IMG/VR virus record: IMGVR_UViG_2529292906_000020
Location: 1 to 22,254 of that record
From: a virus
Lineage: Duplodnaviria; Heunggongvirae; Uroviricota; Caudoviricetes
Direction: 5' to 3' (one strand)
DNA length: 22,254 nucleotides
A program made the position numbers and the translations under genes. Under the pieces are notes generated by a model, which had not been told where the DNA came from, did no database searches, and saw nothing but the letters and a program-made list of their open reading frames with translations. Below are positions 1,495-14,560 of this stretch, in pieces (within the stretch, counting starts at the first letter, position 1; every line of letters starts with the position of its first letter).

Positions 1495-1505
1495 GTCCAT
1501 AAGAA

Positions 1506-1525
1506 AGCCCCTCCGGAGAGGGGCT
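1506..1525. repeat. Perfect palindromic hairpin AGCCCCTC-CGGA-GAGGGGCT (8-bp stem, 4-nt loop)
   Basis: Perfect inverted repeat read directly; no flanking U-tract on either strand, so not a canonical terminator. Confidence 0.5.
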
Positions 1526-1721
1526 GGAGAGTGGCGCTATGTGCCATTGCATGGTGCCGGGTGCCTCCCGGTGAATTCAGTACCAGCACCTGAATCCGCG
1601 ATTATCCCATATACCTACTCGCTGATTGCCCCTCCGCACAGGGGGATTCACCATGCCAGTTTCTTTTAACAAACTCCCCGCAAAACAGACAACTGTCAAC
1701 CGTCTGAATTGTGAGACATTT

Positions 1722-1747
1722 AAAAAAAAGGCCCGCAAAAGCGAGCC
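1722..1747 (-). terminator. Rho-independent terminator after the tRNA cluster (minus strand)
   Basis: On minus strand GGCUCGC-UUUU-GCGGGCC (7-bp stem with one G.U) followed by U8 (plus A-run 1722-1729). Confidence 0.6.
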
Positions 1748-1761
1748 AGGGAAAATAAGTG

Positions 1762-1838
1762 TGGCGCGTTGTACTGGATTCGAACCAGTGACCGATTGCT
1801 TAGAAGGCAATTGCTCTGTCCGGCTGAGCTAACAACGC
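1762..1838 (-). tRNA. tRNA-Arg (anticodon TCT)
   Basis: Manual cloverleaf: acceptor GCGTTGT/ACAACGC, D-stem GCTC/GAGC, anticodon stem ATTGC/GCAAT with loop CTTCTAA, T-arm ACTGG-TTCGAAT-CCAGT, encoded CCA; 77 nt. Confidence 0.85.
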
Positions 1839-1851
1839 AGGGTACAGATAA

Positions 1852-1928
1852 TGGACCGCCATCGAGGACTCGAACCCCGCGCAACCAGCTTCGAAGGCTG
1901 GCGCTCTATCCTGATGAGCTAATGGCGG
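1852..1928 (-). tRNA. tRNA-Arg (anticodon TCG as read from loop CTTCGAA)
   Basis: Manual cloverleaf: acceptor CCGCCAT/ATGGCGG, D-stem GCTC/GAGC, anticodon stem CCAGC/GCTGG, T-loop TTCGAGT, encoded CCA; 77 nt. Confidence 0.75.
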
Positions 1929-1935
1929 TATGTGA

Positions 1936-2011
1936 TGGTGGCCCTTGCTGGATTTGAACCAGCGACCTGGCGATTATGAGTCGCTCGCTCTCACCACTGA
2001 GCTAAAGGGCC
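1936..2011 (-). tRNA. tRNA with CAT anticodon (Met or lysidine-modified Ile2, ileZ-like in phage context)
   Basis: Manual cloverleaf: acceptor GGCCCTT/AAGGGCC, D-stem GCTC/GAGC, anticodon loop CTCATAA, T-arm GCTGG-TTCAAAT-CCAGC, encoded CCA; 76 nt. Confidence 0.8.
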
Positions 2012-4423: not shown

Positions 4424-4651
4424 CTAACCCTTCTTCTTAGTACTCAATCCCTTAATATTGGCTGCGAAAGCCTTTTGCACATCAGCGTTGTTGCGATTCA
4501 AAACCATCGAACCATTACTATCAATGAAAAACTTGTCACTTTCATGCTTAGCTTCTTTTCCATCACACATGGAAGCTATATCTGCAATTTTTTTGATGAT
4601 CTTCTCAGGTGAGAGGATCGCGCGAGCGGCAAGTGTTAGATATTTCGGCAT
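4424..4651 (-). CDS. Small hydrophilic protein (75 aa) of unknown function, first gene of the two-gene cassette
   Basis: ATG at 4651-4649 preceded by GGAGGGGAGC (strong SD); alternative upstream ATG at 4708 would add a hydrophobic 19-aa N-terminus (MCAYFVCVLFVFYLLTEGS) but has a weaker RBS. Confidence 0.6.
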   Translation of the reverse strand: MPKYLTLAARAILSPEKIIKKIADIASMCDGKEAKHESDKFFIDSNGSMVLNRNNADVQKAFAANIKGLSTKKKG

Positions 4652-4830
4652 GCTCCCCTCCGTTAACAGATAAAACACAAAAAGCACACAAACAAAGTAT
4701 GCGCACATCCTAACCTATGTGGCTAACAACCACTTTCTTTTATAAGATGAGTGTATTACCTAAAGGGTAACTCGGCAATAGCAGAATAGTTTTAGCAAGG
4801 TAAAATCGATGGTCTTTCGCTCAACTTACG

Positions 4831-4859
4831 ACAAAAGATAGCCCGCTCAGCAGCAGGCT
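4831..4859 (-). terminator. tR'-like Rho-independent terminator about 70-90 nt downstream of the Q-like gene
   Basis: Minus strand AGCCUGC-UGCUGA-GCGGGCU (7-bp stem, one G.U) followed by AUCUUUUGU. Confidence 0.55.
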
Positions 4860-4911
4860 TTGTTTAGTTTGCCATCGTGTACAAAATCAGCAAAATATCA
4901 GATTTACACGA

Positions 4912-4940
4912 AATGTACGCGATTTAATTGACTTTTGCAA
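4912..4940 (-). promoter_or_regulatory. Candidate late promoter (pR'-like) overlapping the 3' end of the Q-like gene
   Basis: -35 TTGCAA (4935-4940), 17-bp spacer, -10 TACATT (4912-4917) on minus strand, immediately upstream of the tR'-like terminator. Confidence 0.4.
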
Positions 4941-5619
4941 TAACCCGCCGCGAAAAGGTCGCTTTTTGTTGCGATCTTGTTTTCATGGTATAAATCAAAG
5001 ATTCGTTGTCGAGGTTCTTAAAAATGTCGCACATATCACGCCAGTAGTGCGCATAATTGTGGCTCCAGTTGTCTGACTTAACTCCACACAGTCTGGCAAG
5101 TTCCTGTCGCTGGTAGACGTCACACCCAGTAATCCTCCCCCTGACATCCTGCGCCGCCAGCCAGATTAATTTCTTCAGACGCTCAAGCGTTTTCCCTGTA
5201 ATTTTTCTGGTGCCAAAATGCACCTGAAACTTATCCCACGCCCATTTCGCAATGACCACCTGATAATCCCAACTCGGATTTTCACTGTATACCCACAGTA
5301 CCCACGCCTTCTGATGCTCTTCAAGAGACAGAACGGCGCGTCGCCATGATGATGTCGAAAACTCAACCGGACTGACTAGGGCAATTGATGAACCTTTCGC
5401 CAGCGATTGCTTTCCCGGGATCGGTGGATTATCCAGCGTTACCATTTTTCCAGTGACCTTATCGCGGTACCGGATTTTTTTACGTCTGTAACGCCCTGTA
5501 TCAAACATGGCATTCTCCTGCCAGGCTTCAAGCTGACCTTTTGTTGCCCCACTCAAATCGGCGGTGGCGATAATGAGTTGCTCACGAACAAACTGTAAAT
5601 ACTGGTTATTCATGCGCAC
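4924..5619 (-). CDS. Putative late-gene antiterminator (Q-like), 231 aa
   Basis: Called mainly by position: last gene of the nin-like region after rusA, immediately followed by a promoter/terminator pair and late-region cargo; family not verified. Confidence 0.5.
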   Translation of the reverse strand: MRMNNQYLQFVREQLIIATADLSGATKGQLEAWQENAMFDTGRYRRKKIRYRDKVTGKMVTLDNPPIPGKQSLAKGSSIALVSPVEFSTSSWRRAVLSLEEHQKAWVLWVYSENPSWDYQVVIAKWAWDKFQVHFGTRKITGKTLERLKKLIWLAAQDVRGRITGCDVYQRQELARLCGVKSDNWSHNYAHYWRDMCDIFKNLDNESLIYTMKTRSQQKATFSRRVIAKVN

Positions 5620-9584: not shown

Positions 9585-10577
9585 TCAGAATGTCAATTTG
9601 TTACTGGATTTACCGAATTTGTCAGACATGGCTCCCAGGCCAGCCAGGACATCGACCTGTCGCTGTCGCCCACCTCCGTGAGCGGCTGGCTGTTGCCAGT
9701 AATCTTCGAAGTGACGATCGGGTCCAAAGAACGTCGCAGCCTGCTTCACGAACTGTGTGCCGGTATTTCCTGTAGCACGTACCCAGGCGGCATACCGCTT
9801 CACGCCATCAAGCATGGTCTCCGGTTTTATTCCCTCCCTGATACGGGCTTTCCAGGCTTTGAAGGCTGCTGACTTGGAATTGCCACCAGCACGTTTGGGA
9901 TATTCCTGCCAGGCCTGTTCAAATTCCGGTGAATATTCCTGTCGGGCAGAACGCGCTGGCGCAGACGCGTCAGCGGATGCATCAATAGTGTTTTTAGTCT
10001 CCGTTGTAATCTCTGTAGTAATCTCTGTATTTGTATCAACATTCGGCGTATCCCCTGTTCCGTTATGACGTCGGGGGGTGTTCCGTTTTAACGTAATAGC
10101 TGTATCGCTGATTGCATTATTGCTGTTACTTTCTGGCGAAACAGAAGAAGGTGTGGTGATGGCCGCAATTGCCTGTGGGTTGATCCCGACAAACAAAATA
10201 TTGCTGCATTTCACCCCATCGAGCATTTCCACCGTGCGTAAATCCAGAGTAATAAACCCTGCATCGCGCAGACGCTTCAGCGCATCTGCGGTTTCCCTTT
10301 TCCCGAAACCAAACTGCTCAGCAAACGCCTGGTAGCTTCTTTGCAGTTTGTCGCCCTGAAAACGCTTGCGATATCCCAGCAACGCTCCGGTGTGCTCATC
10401 CCTGACCTCTGTCGGGCGGTACCAGTAAACGATCTCTGAAAGCAGAGCGATAGCCGTCGCATCCGGACGCCCACTGGGTAGTCGAATATATTTCCACCAG
10501 TTCGCAGGTGTAACATTGCCGGAAATATTAATTTGACCAATAGCCATAACTTCCGGTGTGGGGGCGTAACGGCTCAT
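9585..10577 (-). CDS. Replication initiator / replisome organiser (lambda O or P22 gp18 functional analogue)
   Basis: 330 aa; position immediately upstream of DnaC-like/DnaB-like genes; low-complexity linker with internal DNA repeats typical of an origin embedded in the initiator gene. Confidence 0.6.
   Translation of the reverse strand: MSRYAPTPEVMAIGQINISGNVTPANWWKYIRLPSGRPDATAIALLSEIVYWYRPTEVRDEHTGALLGYRKRFQGDKLQRSYQAFAEQFGFGKRETADALKRLRDAGFITLDLRTVEMLDGVKCSNILFVGINPQAIAAITTPSSVSPESNSNNAISDTAITLKRNTPRRHNGTGDTPNVDTNTEITTEITTETKNTIDASADASAPARSARQEYSPEFEQAWQEYPKRAGGNSKSAAFKAWKARIREGIKPETMLDGVKRYAAWVRATGNTGTQFVKQAATFFGPDRHFEDYWQQPAAHGGGRQRQVDVLAGLGAMSDKFGKSSNKLTF
9960..10130. repeat. Iteron-like repeat cluster and A+T-rich stretch (putative phage origin) inside the initiator gene
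   Basis: Perfect 12-bp tandem repeat GTAATCTCTGTA x2 at 10006-10029; two copies of TGTTCCGTT within about 40 bp; followed by A+T-rich sequence. Confidence 0.45.
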
Positions 10578-10873
10578 ACAACCTCCTTCCGCGGCATGAG
10601 AATTGTGTAGCCACGCGCAGGTTGTAGTCTGGCTTTTGCATCAATAGTAAGCGTTGCAATTTTTCGGATATGAAGATAACCAGCTCTTTCCAGTGCCAGG
10701 GTTTCCCTGAATATCGCTTGCTTAGAACAACAGCAGAAATCAGCAAGCACCTGATGATCAATAACTCTCTCGCCTTCACCGTCTGAAGAACCCGACATCA
10801 AAACACGCAACATAATCAGGCGCTGAATCGGGTTATCGAAAGCACATCCGCACACAAACTGAAAACAGTTCAC
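10574..10873 (-). CDS. Small HTH-containing protein (99 aa) in the cII-equivalent position
   Basis: Start overlaps stop of upstream gene; HTH-like segment LADFCCCSKQAIFRETLALERAGYL; assignment is positional. Confidence 0.45.
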   Translation of the reverse strand: MNCFQFVCGCAFDNPIQRLIMLRVLMSGSSDGEGERVIDHQVLADFCCCSKQAIFRETLALERAGYLHIRKIATLTIDAKARLQPARGYTILMPRKEVV

Positions 10874-11094: not shown

Positions 11095-11285
11095 GGACGC
11101 ACCTCCACCGTAGTTACGTATTTAACCGGGCTACCTTTCATTGAGATGGTTTCACACATCTCTGCCGCTTTCAGTTCCGCTGTTTTTCTGGATTTATAGC
11201 GACGGTGCCAGACAGATACATCCGTGCGAACTGATACATCGTTTCTGTATTCCGTAGTGGAGATGATGATTTCGTAACTAATCAT
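11091..11285 (-). CDS. Hypothetical phage protein (64 aa)
   Basis: Start overlaps stop of Rha-like gene; coupled operon member. Confidence 0.4.
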   Translation of the reverse strand: MISYEIIISTTEYRNDVSVRTDVSVWHRRYKSRKTAELKAAEMCETISMKGSPVKYVTTVEVRP

Positions 11286-11845
11286 GGGCGAACCTCCTTG
11301 TCAGAACCATTCAGCCTGGAATCAACAAGTGCAGCGCCAAAAACAGCATCACCAACACGGTCGTACAGTTTGCTAGCCAGCGGAGATTCAACGGCCTTAA
11401 GCATTGGATAAAGCTGGCTTGTCCAGATTTGATGGATTTCACGCAAATGCAGGTATACGCCTCTGGCGTTTCGTGCGACAGCTGACATATCAGACGCATC
11501 GGCACCTGATAAACTCTTCTCCATCAGGTTAAAGGCGTTGATGTATGCCTCTTTGAACCGGGCAGCACGTTTACCAGTGAAGCCCATGGCAAGAAACGCA
11601 AAACCGTCGCGGGTGATTTGGTAACAAGGGAGCTTGCGTGTACCACCGTTCGGTTGATTTACCGAAATCGATGTCTCCGCAAAATTGCGGGCACAAAACT
11701 CAGGGGAACAATCCAGAGTGCGGATCTTTTTCAGCACATCGTCATGACGCTTGGAGAAGAAGTTGGCAACAGCCAAAGAAGTGGTAACGGCCTGGCCGTT
11801 GTCAATGGTGATTTCAGGTTGAGTGAGGGCTGGGATCGTAGCCAT
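11282..11845 (-). CDS. Rha-family phage regulatory protein (187 aa from the SD-supported start)
   Basis: ATG at 11845-11843 preceded by GGAGG at 8-nt spacing; ITIDNGQAVTTSLAVANFFSKRHDDVLKKIR...YQITRDGFAFLAMGFTGKRAARFKEAYINAFNLME matches the Rha/Bro-N-like pattern; the in-frame extension to 12145 has no SD. Confidence 0.65.
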   Translation of the reverse strand: MATIPALTQPEITIDNGQAVTTSLAVANFFSKRHDDVLKKIRTLDCSPEFCARNFAETSISVNQPNGGTRKLPCYQITRDGFAFLAMGFTGKRAARFKEAYINAFNLMEKSLSGADASDMSAVARNARGVYLHLREIHQIWTSQLYPMLKAVESPLASKLYDRVGDAVFGAALVDSRLNGSDKEVRP

Positions 11846-12010
11846 GATGGCAGCCTCCGTTGACAGTGAAAAACTTCCACCACCGGAAACGCCAATTTCA
11901 CTGGTGGTGAACTGGACGGGGTTGGCGTAACCGGCGTCAACGGAGACCGGCGCACCTTTCGGTGCCCCCGCCCAGCCCACCATAATCTGGATGTGAGCAA
12001 ATGCGGACGA

Positions 12011-12031
12011 TAAAAAAGACGCTGACGCGTC
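12011..12031 (-). terminator. Weak Rho-independent terminator (tR1-like) in the leader between the 235-aa gene and the Rha gene
   Basis: Minus strand GACGC-GUCA-GCGUC followed by UUUUUUA. Confidence 0.35.
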
Positions 12032-12168
12032 ATACATCGCCGTTGACAATTTCAGGACGCCAATCCCGGCACCCGCTTTATAAGGTGCGGAGACAGTGTA
12101 ACGTCCCGAAATTGCAGAATCAATATTTGGTCTTGAAATGATCATATAGCTGCTGATATCTTTAGAAC

Positions 12169-12255
12169 TGTTCTTGGATGTTTCGGAGCCGTTTTATGCG
12201 AAACAGCTCCCCGTTATTGATGTTGAGTGAGCCGGGTTACTCCCGGCTTTTTTTC
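12169..12255 (+). ncRNA. Candidate small antisense RNA (lambda oop-like), about 85 nt, two hairpins ending in a Rho-independent terminator
   Basis: Plus-strand -35 TTGAAA (12133-12138), 18-bp spacer, -10 TATCTT (12157-12162); hairpin GGAGCCGTTT/AAACAGCTCC; terminal hairpin AGCCGGG-TTACT-CCCGGCT plus T7 abutting the stop of the convergent 235-aa gene; no plus-strand CDS here. Confidence 0.4.
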
Positions 12256-12961
12256 ATCGCTGCCAACCAATAACCTGAAATAACCCCATTTTCGGGTGAT
12301 ACCAGCGAGTCCCTCGCGGTTCTGCTTCCTCCATAACCCGATAAAAAGCAGCCATAAACGGTTCCACAGCAACAATTGCGCGACGTGACAACAATCCGTC
12401 CGGCGTCATGAACTCATGTGTGTCTGTAGGAATTTGATAGGCGTTCACCAGATTGCGGCATTTATCATCTGACAAACCGGTTTTTGCTTTCAGTTGGCGA
12501 TATCCGGCATAGCCCTCACGAATAGTGCCCTTTTTAATTTGCTCGACTGTTTCAGCAACGTGGCTGACTTTTTCTTCCACCTGAGTGATCCGTTTCTGTT
12601 GGCGAACGGCTTCAAGAGCCATCGCGGCAACCATTTCGATTTCGCTCATTGGCTTACGGATCTGTTCTTCCAGTTCGCGCCAGCGATCTACCAGGCGAGC
12701 TGTGAATTCAGGACAGAGCTGTGCGACGACAATGATGCTGTCGCGCTTACCTCGTTCACCTTCGAATACATACGCGCTAGAAAATCGGCGAGGCCCAAGT
12801 GATTGTTTATTCTCAATTTCCACAGTCTGTGGAAATTGGATGATTCCCTTTTTAGCCAGTGTTTCAATAGTTCTCTTAACACTATCTGGTCGGCTTCCCA
12901 CCAACTCTGCGATCTCAACGCTGGTCATGGATGCTTTGCCGTTAAAAATTGCGGTGTTCAT
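12254..12961 (-). CDS. Phage regulatory protein with Rha/ORF6N-like winged-helix N-terminal domain (235 aa)
   Basis: AGGAGA 7 nt upstream of ATG; N-terminus MTSVEIAELVGSRPDSVKRTIETLAKKGII resembles Rha/ORF6N DNA-binding domains. Confidence 0.5.
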   Translation of the reverse strand: MNTAIFNGKASMTSVEIAELVGSRPDSVKRTIETLAKKGIIQFPQTVEIENKQSLGPRRFSSAYVFEGERGKRDSIIVVAQLCPEFTARLVDRWRELEEQIRKPMSEIEMVAAMALEAVRQQKRITQVEEKVSHVAETVEQIKKGTIREGYAGYRQLKAKTGLSDDKCRNLVNAYQIPTDTHEFMTPDGLLSRRAIVAVEPFMAAFYRVMEEAEPRGTRWYHPKMGLFQVIGWQR

Positions 12962-13185
12962 TGTTGGTCTCCTGTGGGCTTGTCATCTTCTGTATTCGCT
13001 AGACTTGGGTGTGTATATGGAATGCTCGGATCCAGATGACAAAGAATGGCAACATCCTCCGGAACACCTCGCGTTTTCCACTTTCCAACACCTTGACTGC
13101 CACGAGGCCTTCCTTTCTTTGGGAACCTGCGACCAATAGCGGCATTGGTTTTAAATTGAATTTTTAATATTTCATAAAGGGTCAT
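12958..13185 (-). CDS. Possible small basic protein (75 aa) in the cro position; uncertain
   Basis: Stop overlaps ATG of the 235-aa gene (ATGA); start lies about 30 nt downstream of the predicted pR -10; weak SD and several rare codons; no clear HTH. Confidence 0.3.
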   Translation of the reverse strand: MTLYEILKIQFKTNAAIGRRFPKKGRPRGSQGVGKWKTRGVPEDVAILCHLDPSIPYTHPSLANTEDDKPTGDQQ

Positions 13186-13199
13186 TCTTTAGTCTCACG

Positions 13200-13280
13200 C
13201 CAGATACTTTGTTATCCAACGATGTTAACCACAGGAACCCAAAGTATCAAGAAATTCTGTTACTTTAGTATCAACAGCCA
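13200..13280. promoter_or_regulatory. Divergent immunity promoter/operator region (pR-like leftward, pRM-like rightward, three operator-like repeats)
   Basis: Repeats GATACTTTGTTATC (13203-13216), CAAAGTATCAAG (13239-13250), TACTTTAGTATC (13261-13272); minus-strand -35 TTGATA (13245-13250) and -10 TAACAT (13222-13227); plus-strand -10 TAGTAT (13266-13271). Confidence 0.55.
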
Positions 13281-13953: not shown

Positions 13954-13974
13954 CCAGACACAAAACACAAAAAG

Positions 13975-14055
13975 AAACCAAAGTATCAAAAATCACTTGC
14001 TACGCCTTGATACCTTAGTTACCATAAAACAAAGTTCGTAACTGAGGTATCATCT
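13975..14055 (+). promoter_or_regulatory. OL/pL-like operator-promoter region downstream of the repressor gene
   Basis: Operator-like copies CAAAGTATCAAA (13979-13990), TTGATACC (14007-14014), AGGTATCAT (14045-14053) sharing the AAAGTATC/GATACTTT motif of the OR region; candidate -35 TTGCTA / -10 TACCAT. Confidence 0.45.
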
Positions 14056-14056
14056 C

Positions 14057-14560
14057 ATGATCAATAAAGCTACAACTCTTGACTGTCTCGAAGAACTGAA
14101 AAACCTCGGCAGCCTCATTACACTAATAGCAAAAGCAACACCTGATGCTACGCTCTCTAGCGATATAGAGTCATGCGCAGGACTGGCATGGGATATGACA
14201 AATAGCATATCCAGAAAGCTATCGTCAGCAATGCTTTTACAGAACAAAAATTCTGCAATCAACAACCGTCTTCGCACCCAACGCGAAGCCTGCGGCTTAA
14301 CAACCGCCGAACTCGCCAGGCTGCTCGATCTCGATGAAGAAATTATCATCCAGTGGGAGAGCGGAGAGTATGAACCAACTATCAGTATGCTTATCCCACT
14401 GGCAAATATTCTTGGCTGCGATGCGATGTGGCTGTTAACTGGTGAGGTTACTCCTCCGGAGCAACCAAAAAGTGAGGAGCAGCAACACCATGACGCATCT
14501 CAACAAGTTTGCCCCTTATCTCGCGAAGCTCTTCTACGGAAGAACCAATACCAATGGTGA
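14057..14560 (+). CDS. HTH-XRE DNA-binding protein with about 67-aa N-terminal extension (167 aa), first gene of the early-left operon
   Basis: GAGGT 8 nt upstream of ATG; HTH AINNRLRTQREACGLTTAELARLLDLDEEIIIQWESGEYEPTISMLIPLANILGCDAMWLL. Confidence 0.7.
   Translation: MINKATTLDCLEELKNLGSLITLIAKATPDATLSSDIESCAGLAWDMTNSISRKLSSAMLLQNKNSAINNRLRTQREACGLTTAELARLLDLDEEIIIQWESGEYEPTISMLIPLANILGCDAMWLLTGEVTPPEQPKSEEQQHHDASQQVCPLSREALLRKNQYQW

Follow-up and report, generated by a model that had tools for sequence, protein, structure and literature searches.

A divergent P22-type Cro with an enlarged helix-turn-helix turn as the likely first lytic gene product of a phiP27-like Escherichia coli prophage

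Background

Which protein opposes the CI repressor in the immunity region of a lambdoid (phiP27-like) Escherichia coli prophage in which the first gene divergent from cI encodes a 75-aa protein that is annotated as hypothetical (PGAP/RefSeq name of WP_000177358.1)? The window analyzed here, a stretch of 22,254 nucleotides, is part of such a prophage; E. coli strain 100416 carries the 2.9 kb surrounding the locus with 99.8% identity, and 137 of 5,426 complete E. coli genomes (about 2.5%) contain at least 80% of this region. A preliminary description of the window had found no recognizable Cro and had considered the lytic side of the switch atypical, with the 75-aa open reading frame (ORF) being either a divergent Cro or an N-like factor, or else with an antirepressor-type protein coming first in the lytic operon.

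Smith et al. (2012, PMC3430580) list a “Cro12” for phage P27 (phiP27) and, in their account of that phage, report N and cIII as absent and no cII orthologue as found. For the Rac-type prophages, YdaS has been argued from genetic context to be a Cro-type regulator (PMC5917428), and a related bistable repressor switch is described for CP-933P (PMC8630535). Further downstream, RNA elements come into play that are known from isrK-orf45-anrP of Gifsy-1; in the description of that locus, IsrK counts as a structural homolog of P4 seqA (PMC4825925).

Results

Layout of the immunity region

The general layout given in the preliminary description holds (Table 1). The 75-aa ORF is divergent from a CI-like repressor gene with HTH_3 and Peptidase_S24 domains, and its stop codon overlaps the start of the gene for a 235-aa protein, with TGA and ATG sharing the tetranucleotide ATGA, which suggests that translation of the second gene is coupled to that of the first. 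The 75-aa protein may rightly be called basic, as its folded part (residues 1–63) holds 11 K/R versus 4 D/E. Sigma-70-like hexamers are present at the predicted pR, and a start site about 30 nt upstream of the ORF is reasonable because the predicted −10 ends 36 nt before the ATG. The repressor matches the lambda repressor (3bdn) with E 8.9e-34 over residues 12–215 and has the architecture of the lambda CI/LexA-type S24 proteins, i.e., an N-terminal helix-turn-helix (HTH) followed by a C-terminal S24 autopeptidase with an Ala-Gly cleavage site (VQAG) and a Ser/Lys dyad (the serine in GDSM and the lysine in FKK). On the minus strand, the 75-aa and 235-aa ORFs are followed, after a gap of 108 nt, by a 287-aa ORF (12145..11282) and two small ORFs, downstream of which lie replication genes (O-like, DnaC-like, and DnaB-like), a DUF968 gene, and the Q antiterminator gene.

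Table 1 Features of the immunity region and adjoining early operon (positions in the window)
Feature	Position	Strand	Basis or remark
OL region, three predicted operators	13974–13987, 14009–14022, 14038–14051 (region 13974..14051)		Before first leftward gene
cI repressor, 218 aa	13297..13953	+	Pfam HTH_3 and Peptidase_S24; lambda repressor 3bdn match
OR3 (GATACTAAAGTAAC on minus strand), predicted operator	13259..13272		Nearest cI; overlaps candidate pRM hexamer
OR2 (GATACTTTGGGTTC on minus strand), predicted operator	13235..13248		Overlaps pR −35 hexamer
Predicted pR: TTGATA (13250–13245), 17-nt spacer, TAACAT (13227–13222)	13222..13250	-	Sigma-70-like
OR1 (GATACTTTGTTATC), predicted operator	13203..13216		At predicted pR start site, 31 nt before cro ATG
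cro homolog, 75-aa ORF	13185..12958	-	P22_Cro/YdaS-superfamily helix-turn-helix protein
Roi/Rha-family predicted DNA-binding protein, 235 aa	12961..12254	-	Pfam, phrog_63, Roi similarity
Predicted IsrK promoter: TTGATT (12125–12120), 17-nt spacer, TACACT (12102–12097)	12125..12097	-	Read from sequence
IsrK-type sRNA (a1/b1 target region)	12088..12012	-	Rfam RF01394, 61.6 bits (gathering 50)
Predicted IsrK terminator	12031..12018	-	
C4 antisense RNA	11987..11900	-	Rfam RF01695, 81.4 bits (gathering 45), full length
Rha-domain antirepressor-type gene, likely 188 aa	11848..11282	-	GGAGG Shine-Dalgarno complementary to C4 loop

The 75-aa protein belongs to a small, conserved, and unnamed family

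The reading frame is conserved, which the preliminary description had proposed to check. It matches phrog_4749 (“unknown function”) from end to end (E 7e-49), and a search of a 5.8-billion-protein collection gave 42 homolog clusters of 63–95% identity, all unnamed, within the Enterobacterales (Klebsiella, Yersinia, Kosakonia, Citrobacter, Salmonella, Photorhabdus, Xenorhabdus, and Providencia). The family is small, since no more than 16 clusters came out of an exhaustive profile search against 1.84 billion representatives. Its alignment has 24 invariant columns, including Q31, V33-G34-K35-W36, G40-V41-P42, and V45 to H50.

Scanned with Pfam and NCBIfam, the 75-aa protein showed no family match, with the gathering scores of PF14549 and PF15943 not being reached, and the family profile found no Cro when compared with the PDB by sequence. 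Two listed matches were set aside, namely Peripla_BP_3 (E 0.22) as noise and Nup358 (E about 1), the sole PDB match of the family profile, as chance. The homology of the 75-aa protein to P22_Cro is therefore transitive, and it runs through the most distant members of the family.

These ten most distant members (P0047–P0056) do not have five residues that the main group carries in the HTH turn. They align with the main group with an hhalign probability of 99.7% (E 5.4e-26) and a single 5-residue gap at that turn. Pfam P22_Cro is matched by six of the ten at E up to 0.01, one of which (P0052) scores 31.2 bits and is thus above the gathering score of 30.2, while the profile of the distant group has P22 Cro (1rzs) as its best match in the PDB (E 3.6e-5). 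A merged profile gives the same alignment with P22 Cro (FP-rkGk-prsrqavgkW versus AL-----GISDAAVSQW). Several distant relatives match the P22_Cro as well as the YdaS model, the latter weakly.

An AlphaFold2 model made from a 34-sequence alignment without templates (pLDDT 86.6, and >90 for 57 residues) predicts a compact five-helix HTH domain (helices 3–11, 14–20, 30–39, 43–51, and 60–63) followed by an acidic tail (residues 64–75) that is disordered in the model from residue 66 on (pLDDT <50). The modeled secondary structure fits the alignment, with 14–20 as HTH helix 2, 30–39 as the recognition helix, and 21–29 as an enlarged turn, and the fold agrees with the solved all-alpha Cro proteins. 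Foldseek searches of the model gave nothing significant in the PDB (best E 0.73) or BFVD (best E 0.37). The best named matches in these searches, though non-significant, were Cro or YdaS.

A literature link exists as well: the degenerate cro12 forward primer of Smith et al. (PMC3430580) encodes MTLYEI, the N-terminus of the 75-aa protein, so that the gene had already been named cro in that source, which does not spell out the basis for the name.

A CI homolog accompanies the 75-aa gene at every locus examined

The gene neighborhood was compared across 22 loci drawn from phage records, contigs of the protein collection, and a scan of one genome per species, the last of which returned Raoultella, Yersinia, Phytobacter, Photorhabdus, Providencia, Pantoea, Xenorhabdus, and Proteus. 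The set covers E. coli, Klebsiella, Raoultella, Yersinia, Phytobacter, Pantoea, Photorhabdus, Xenorhabdus, Providencia, and Proteus and includes two distant loci. In all 22 loci, from about ten genera, a full-length homolog of this CI (30–98% identity) lies divergently 100–137 bp upstream of the 75-aa homolog, which comes first among the genes facing away from cI. The genes that come after the 75-aa homolog differ and are mostly small ORFs of unknown function followed by replication genes; among the loci examined, Roi and Rha genes occur in this operon only in the phiP27-like phages of E. coli.

Phage PhiR49_2 provides a natural module swap. It has the roi gene and left-arm genes in common with the window and a different cI, and the slot of the 75-aa ORF is taken by a 96-aa annotated Cro (Pfam YdaS_toxin 47.7 bits, also with a P22_Cro match) whose gene forms an ATGA overlap with the same roi gene. 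Nucleotide homology between the window and PhiR49_2 reaches into cro for about 15 nt from its 3′ end and then stops.

Taken with the transitive P22_Cro homology, the position in 22 of 22 loci and the slot replacement in PhiR49_2 make it highly likely that the 75-aa gene encodes a divergent Cro, homologous to the P22 type, in an ordinary lambda-type CI/Cro switch. The first of the options in the preliminary description is thereby favored; its statement that no HTH Cro-like protein is evident is wrong, and its view of the switch as atypical is unsupported.

A protein with a Cro fold could nevertheless serve a non-classical role and, for example, inhibit growth like YdaS, act as an activator like CII, or work as a recombination directionality factor. 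The Pfam clan indeed includes a “YdaS_toxin” family to which some distant relatives are weakly similar, the PDB profile search lists lambda CII at E about 1, and the enlarged HTH turn could change the function. However, every one of the 22 loci examined has the genetic context of a cro gene, YdaS itself has been argued to be a Cro-type regulator (PMC5917428), and the best structural matches of the model are Cro proteins rather than CII or Xis, so that we consider such a role improbable.

Less credible still is a switch without Cro, in which a Rha/Roi antirepressor-type protein comes first and inactivates CI while the 75-aa ORF is an accessory peptide. Two Rha-type genes directly downstream, one of them in a PHROG labeled “anti-repressor Ant” (phrog_63), would fit this idea, as would the fact that RefSeq and PHROGs assign no function to the 75-aa ORF. 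Against it stand the Cro fold and P22_Cro homology of the 75-aa protein and the loci of Klebsiella, Photorhabdus, Providencia, and others, which retain the 75-aa homolog and CI without Rha or Roi in the operon. Since these genera keep only the former, Rha/Roi are best seen as optional cargo and the 75-aa gene as the constant partner of CI, and an antirepressor-first switch, which is very improbable, becomes unnecessary as an explanation.

Predicted operators and promoters

The divergent Cro and CI would be expected to share binding sites between their genes. The pattern GATACNNNNKKWWC has six matches in the 22-kb window, where 0.57 would be expected by chance, and none of 100 shuffles reached six. 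All six are located in the intergenic regions on either side of cI. The predicted operators are 14 bp long with the form GATAC-N4-KKWWC, three in OR and three in OL. In relatives across genera the three OR sites are kept, with start-to-start distances of 24 and 32 bp. Providencia and Proteus, whose CI shares only about 43% identity, have half-sites changed to GAAAC/GAAAG. A Klebsiella relative has equivalent hexamers (TTGATA-17-TACTAT) in the same place as the predicted pR. On the cI strand, TAGTAT at 13266–13271 resembles a −10 hexamer without a good −35 and is a candidate for pRM.

The neighboring gene encodes a Roi/Rha-like protein

The preliminary description had called the products of both downstream genes Rha/ORF6N-like. 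The Rha part of this assignment stands for the second protein and is probable for the first, whereas the ORF6N part does not hold, as neither protein has a Pfam ORF6N match among those listed up to E 1. The 235-aa protein scores 25.6 bits with Pfam Rha, just under the cut-off of 29.9, while its PhiR49_2 ortholog reaches 40.2 bits and near-identical proteins carry a precomputed PF09669 match. It further matches phrog_63 (E 3e-46), has 64–68% identity to Roi of Stx phages over residues 1–98, and is named “Rha family transcriptional regulator” by PGAP. Its 4,940 homolog clusters bear this name or “DNA-binding protein”; the 120 homologs listed are all at least 91% identical.

IsrK and C4 RNA genes precede the second Rha gene

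The leader that the preliminary description placed before the second Rha-like gene is correct in substance and holds IsrK and C4 RNA genes (Table 1). A candidate antisense RNA of 88 nt lies upstream of them on the plus strand, at 12169–12256. The 287-aa ORF has a strong Rha domain (Pfam Rha E 4e-27; TIGR02681 88 bits) and is called by PGAP from 12145, but the frame then runs through both RNA genes, which are located in its 5′ third. A Pfam Phage_ASH match (residues 16–111) coincides with these RNA genes.

The C4 loop (UCUCCGUUGA) is complementary to UCAACGGAGG, which holds a GGAGG Shine-Dalgarno sequence ending 8 nt before the ATG at 11848, and also to UCAACGGCGA within IsrK. In both places UUGGCGU is present as the pairing partner of a second C4 element, ACGCCAA. 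This corresponds to the pairing of the P1 c4/immI type, in which C4 a′/b′ faces a1/b1 upstream and a2/b2 at the ribosome-binding site. The a′/b′ elements show three-way covariation with their targets in four phages; in phiP27, PhiR49_2, and Stx1a_14040, all three partners change together, with three b variants and three a variants. Because the C4/Shine-Dalgarno pairing covaries and matches the logic of P1/P7 c4-ant and Gifsy-1, the start at 11848 is likely to be real, and judging from the sequence the actual coding region is most likely that of the 188-aa protein.

These RNAs also bear on the weakest alternative, that the 75-aa ORF encodes an antiterminator like N, an arginine-rich peptide with a nut-like leader RNA as its target: its basic stretch RRFPKKGRPRG, the structured RNA downstream, and the lack of an N in the account of the related phage P27 by Smith et al. 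(PMC3430580) are in its favor, but the confident prediction is that of a compact five-helix HTH domain rather than a disordered ARM peptide, the gene occupies the Cro slot of the pR operon instead of heading pL, IsrK and C4 are the RNAs found downstream and covary with their own targets, no nut-like element was identified, and the basic stretch aligns as an insertion inside the HTH common to P22 Cro, which leaves this option unnecessary and extremely improbable.

Discussion

An enlarged turn in an otherwise ordinary switch

With the 75-aa protein taken as Cro, its HTH turn is the sole unusual feature of an otherwise ordinary lambdoid immunity region. Compared with the insertion-free relatives and P22 Cro, it carries a basic insertion of five residues (PKKGR, residues 22–26), which in the model gives a turn loop of 8–9 residues (21–29) instead of the canonical HTH turn of about 3. 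It is probably this insertion that makes profile libraries miss the protein. The loop has the motif P-x-x-G-x-x-R, in which Pro22, G25, and R28 are invariant in the family. A turn of this size is unusual and might change canonical DNA recognition or do away with it altogether. PKKGR may be positioned so that it contacts the backbone or minor groove of the DNA next to the half-site. It is a tentative and rather doubtful proposal that PKKGR is a new DNA-contacting loop of an Enterobacterales-wide Cro subfamily, a “helix-loop-helix” reading head whose minor-groove or backbone contacts beside the GATAC half-site alter how Cro discriminates between OR1, OR2, and OR3. The resemblance of KKGRPRG to an AT-hook core was also considered and not adopted, given that the proline after G-K/R is often alanine in homologs.

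The closest kin of the 75-aa Cro are the all-alpha Cro proteins of P22 (1rzs; PF14549), N15 (2hin), and Xfaso1 (3bd1). Relative to these, it has PKKGR between HTH helix 2 and the turn, only sub-threshold Pfam scores, an acidic disordered tail, and an LCH(L/Y) motif in helix 4 followed by an IPYTH motif, both of which are specific to the family. The YdaS-type Cro proteins of Rac, CP-933P, and PhiR49_2 (PF15943) form a related HTH family, the PhiR49_2 protein even in the same slot, but they have no turn insertion and differ in immunity specificity and partner repressor; moreover, the next gene in Rac and CP-933P is that of YdaT, a CII equivalent (PMC9986795), whereas here it is that of the Roi/Rha protein.

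A model of the switch

The switch resembles that of lambda in the homologous CI C-domain, the tripartite OR and OL, the divergent pR and cI promoters, and Cro as the presumed first product from pR. It is unlike lambda in its operators, which are 14 bp long, have GATAC half-sites, and follow each other at 24 and 32 bp, in the absence of cII after cro, and in the all-alpha P22-type Cro as opposed to the alpha+beta fold of lambda Cro. In the lysogen, CI dimers on OR1 and OR2 would block pR, with the −35 lying in OR2 and the start site in OR1. Upon SOS induction, RecA-stimulated autocleavage of CI would allow pR to fire, and Cro would be made first. By analogy, the Cro dimer would then bind the same operators, shut off the cI promoter, and later turn down pR, most likely occupying OR3 first; because the cI promoter is not placed confidently, this order and the repression of pRM from OR3 are to be read as analogy only. 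Translation of cro would be coupled through ATGA to that of the predicted DNA-binding protein of the Roi/Rha family, and the replication genes and Q would be reached after the putative antirepressor gene.

The Roi/Rha protein probably has a Rha-type domain in common with the Roi proteins of HK022 and Stx phages and the Rha proteins of phi80 and P22, and its N-terminal 98 residues are like those of Stx-phage Roi. It differs from them in its C-terminal domain (phrog_6610) and in the place of its gene directly after cro. In Stx phages, roi sits in the nin region. The genomic context of Stx-phage roi, downstream of ant, is described as preserved by Smith et al. (2012, PMC3430580).

IsrK sRNA and the C4 antisense RNA may gate the translation of the putative Rha-type antirepressor by masking its ribosome-binding site, as suggested by P1 immI and Gifsy-1 isrK. 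As in P1/P7 immI (c4-icd-ant) and Gifsy-1 isrK-orf45-anrP (PMC4825925), a C4-family RNA has an upstream a1/b1 target (in IsrK) and a downstream a2/b2 target, b2 lies over the ribosome-binding site, and an antirepressor-type gene follows; specificity variants covary as they do between P1 and P7. In contrast to these systems, the module is located inside the pR early operon, between the roi-like gene and the replication genes. A separate orf45 is lacking, and the reading frame stays open through the RNAs and continues in frame into the Rha gene.

Conclusions

A family so far called hypothetical (WP_000177358.1, phrog_4749, no Pfam) that is found in phiP27-like and Stx1a-converting phages can be named Cro, and the GATAC-N4-KKWWC consensus of the three OR and three OL sites can be used for typing immunity groups. 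The 287-aa “Rha” ORF, and probably also the Phage_ASH domain in it, has been over-called across the IsrK and C4 genes, with a likely start at 11848. Finally, a Cro with an enlarged HTH turn is added to a protein family that has long been used for the study of the evolution of fold and specificity.

RNA genes ahead of the second Rha gene

On the minus strand at 11900-12145, downstream of the roi-like gene, which encodes a Roi/Rha-family protein, the 287-aa "Rha family" ORF of PGAP-style annotation runs through the genes of two RNAs, IsrK and C4, and its Pfam Phage_ASH match (aa 16-111) falls on these RNA genes. The second Rha gene is likely to start at ATG 11848, where the C4 loop is predicted to mask the Shine-Dalgarno (SD) sequence (GGAGG). 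In a comparison of four phages, changes in IsrK and C4 go together with changes at this SD site.

Features of the prophage and of phiP27 (positions in the window unless stated)
Feature	Position	Strand	Context
Three tRNA genes and sRNA STnc100 (139 bits)	1495-2011	-	Downstream of Q and DNA methylase
Q antiterminator	5619..4924	-	Upstream of tRNA genes and STnc100
Replication-initiator region	9585-10873	-	Two overlapping ORFs, 99 aa and 330 aa
C4 RNA gene	11987..11900	-	Inside 287-aa ORF
IsrK RNA gene	12088..12012	-	Inside 287-aa ORF
Region of a candidate 88-nt antisense sRNA	12133-12256	+	Between roi-like gene and IsrK
167-aa HTH_3 protein gene	14057-14560	+	First in leftward operon, immediately after three OL sites
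IS3-family element	19740-20953		Left arm of prophage
ALIL frameshift pseudoknot (121.5 bits)	20021-20137		Between 108-aa ORF and 296-aa rve transposase ORF of the IS3-family element
L13, 223-aa gene	4540-5211 of phiP27 (L001)	+	Between L12 (cro homolog) and L14 (roi-like gene)

A candidate antisense sRNA

The candidate 88-nt sRNA has a promoter-like TTGAAA-18-TATCTT sequence with TG, two hairpins and, at 12229-12249 on its own (plus) strand, a strong terminator with T7 behind it. Its folding z-score is -3.49. The copy in PhiR49_2, a related phage with the same roi gene, is identical except for two substitutions, and in phiP27 its place is taken by another, dissimilar hairpin, again on the plus strand and with a T-run. 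Rfam has no family for it, sroD scoring 24.5 bits, under the gathering score. In direction and position it is similar to lambda OOP.

Variation within the operons

The window and PhiR49_2 keep the ATGA coupling of the cro homolog to the roi-like gene, whereas in phiP27 it is interrupted by the insertion of L13. The 167-aa HTH_3 protein behind OL, which matches phrog_4739 and also phrog_4836 ("CII-like regulator"), is encoded in the slot that N occupies in lambda; in Providencia relatives an HTH_3 gene likewise lies immediately after cI. This phage group is without N and cII.

Both ORFs of the initiator region are labelled hypothetical in RefSeq; the shorter matches phrog_4617, the N-terminal part of an initiator, and the longer phrog_270. 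They could be pieces of one O-like gene that is split or carries a frameshift, or each could be a genuine gene. Stx-type lambdoid phages usually carry tRNAs at a site such as that found here downstream of Q.

Operator and repressor divergence

In three Providencia and Proteus loci (L010, L018 and L022), the intergenic half-sites read GAAAC/GAAAG, as opposed to GATAC in the window, with site number and 24/32-bp spacing unchanged; identity to the window proteins is ~43% for CI and ~68-74% for Cro. These loci constitute a natural series in which to study the co-evolution of repressor and operator.
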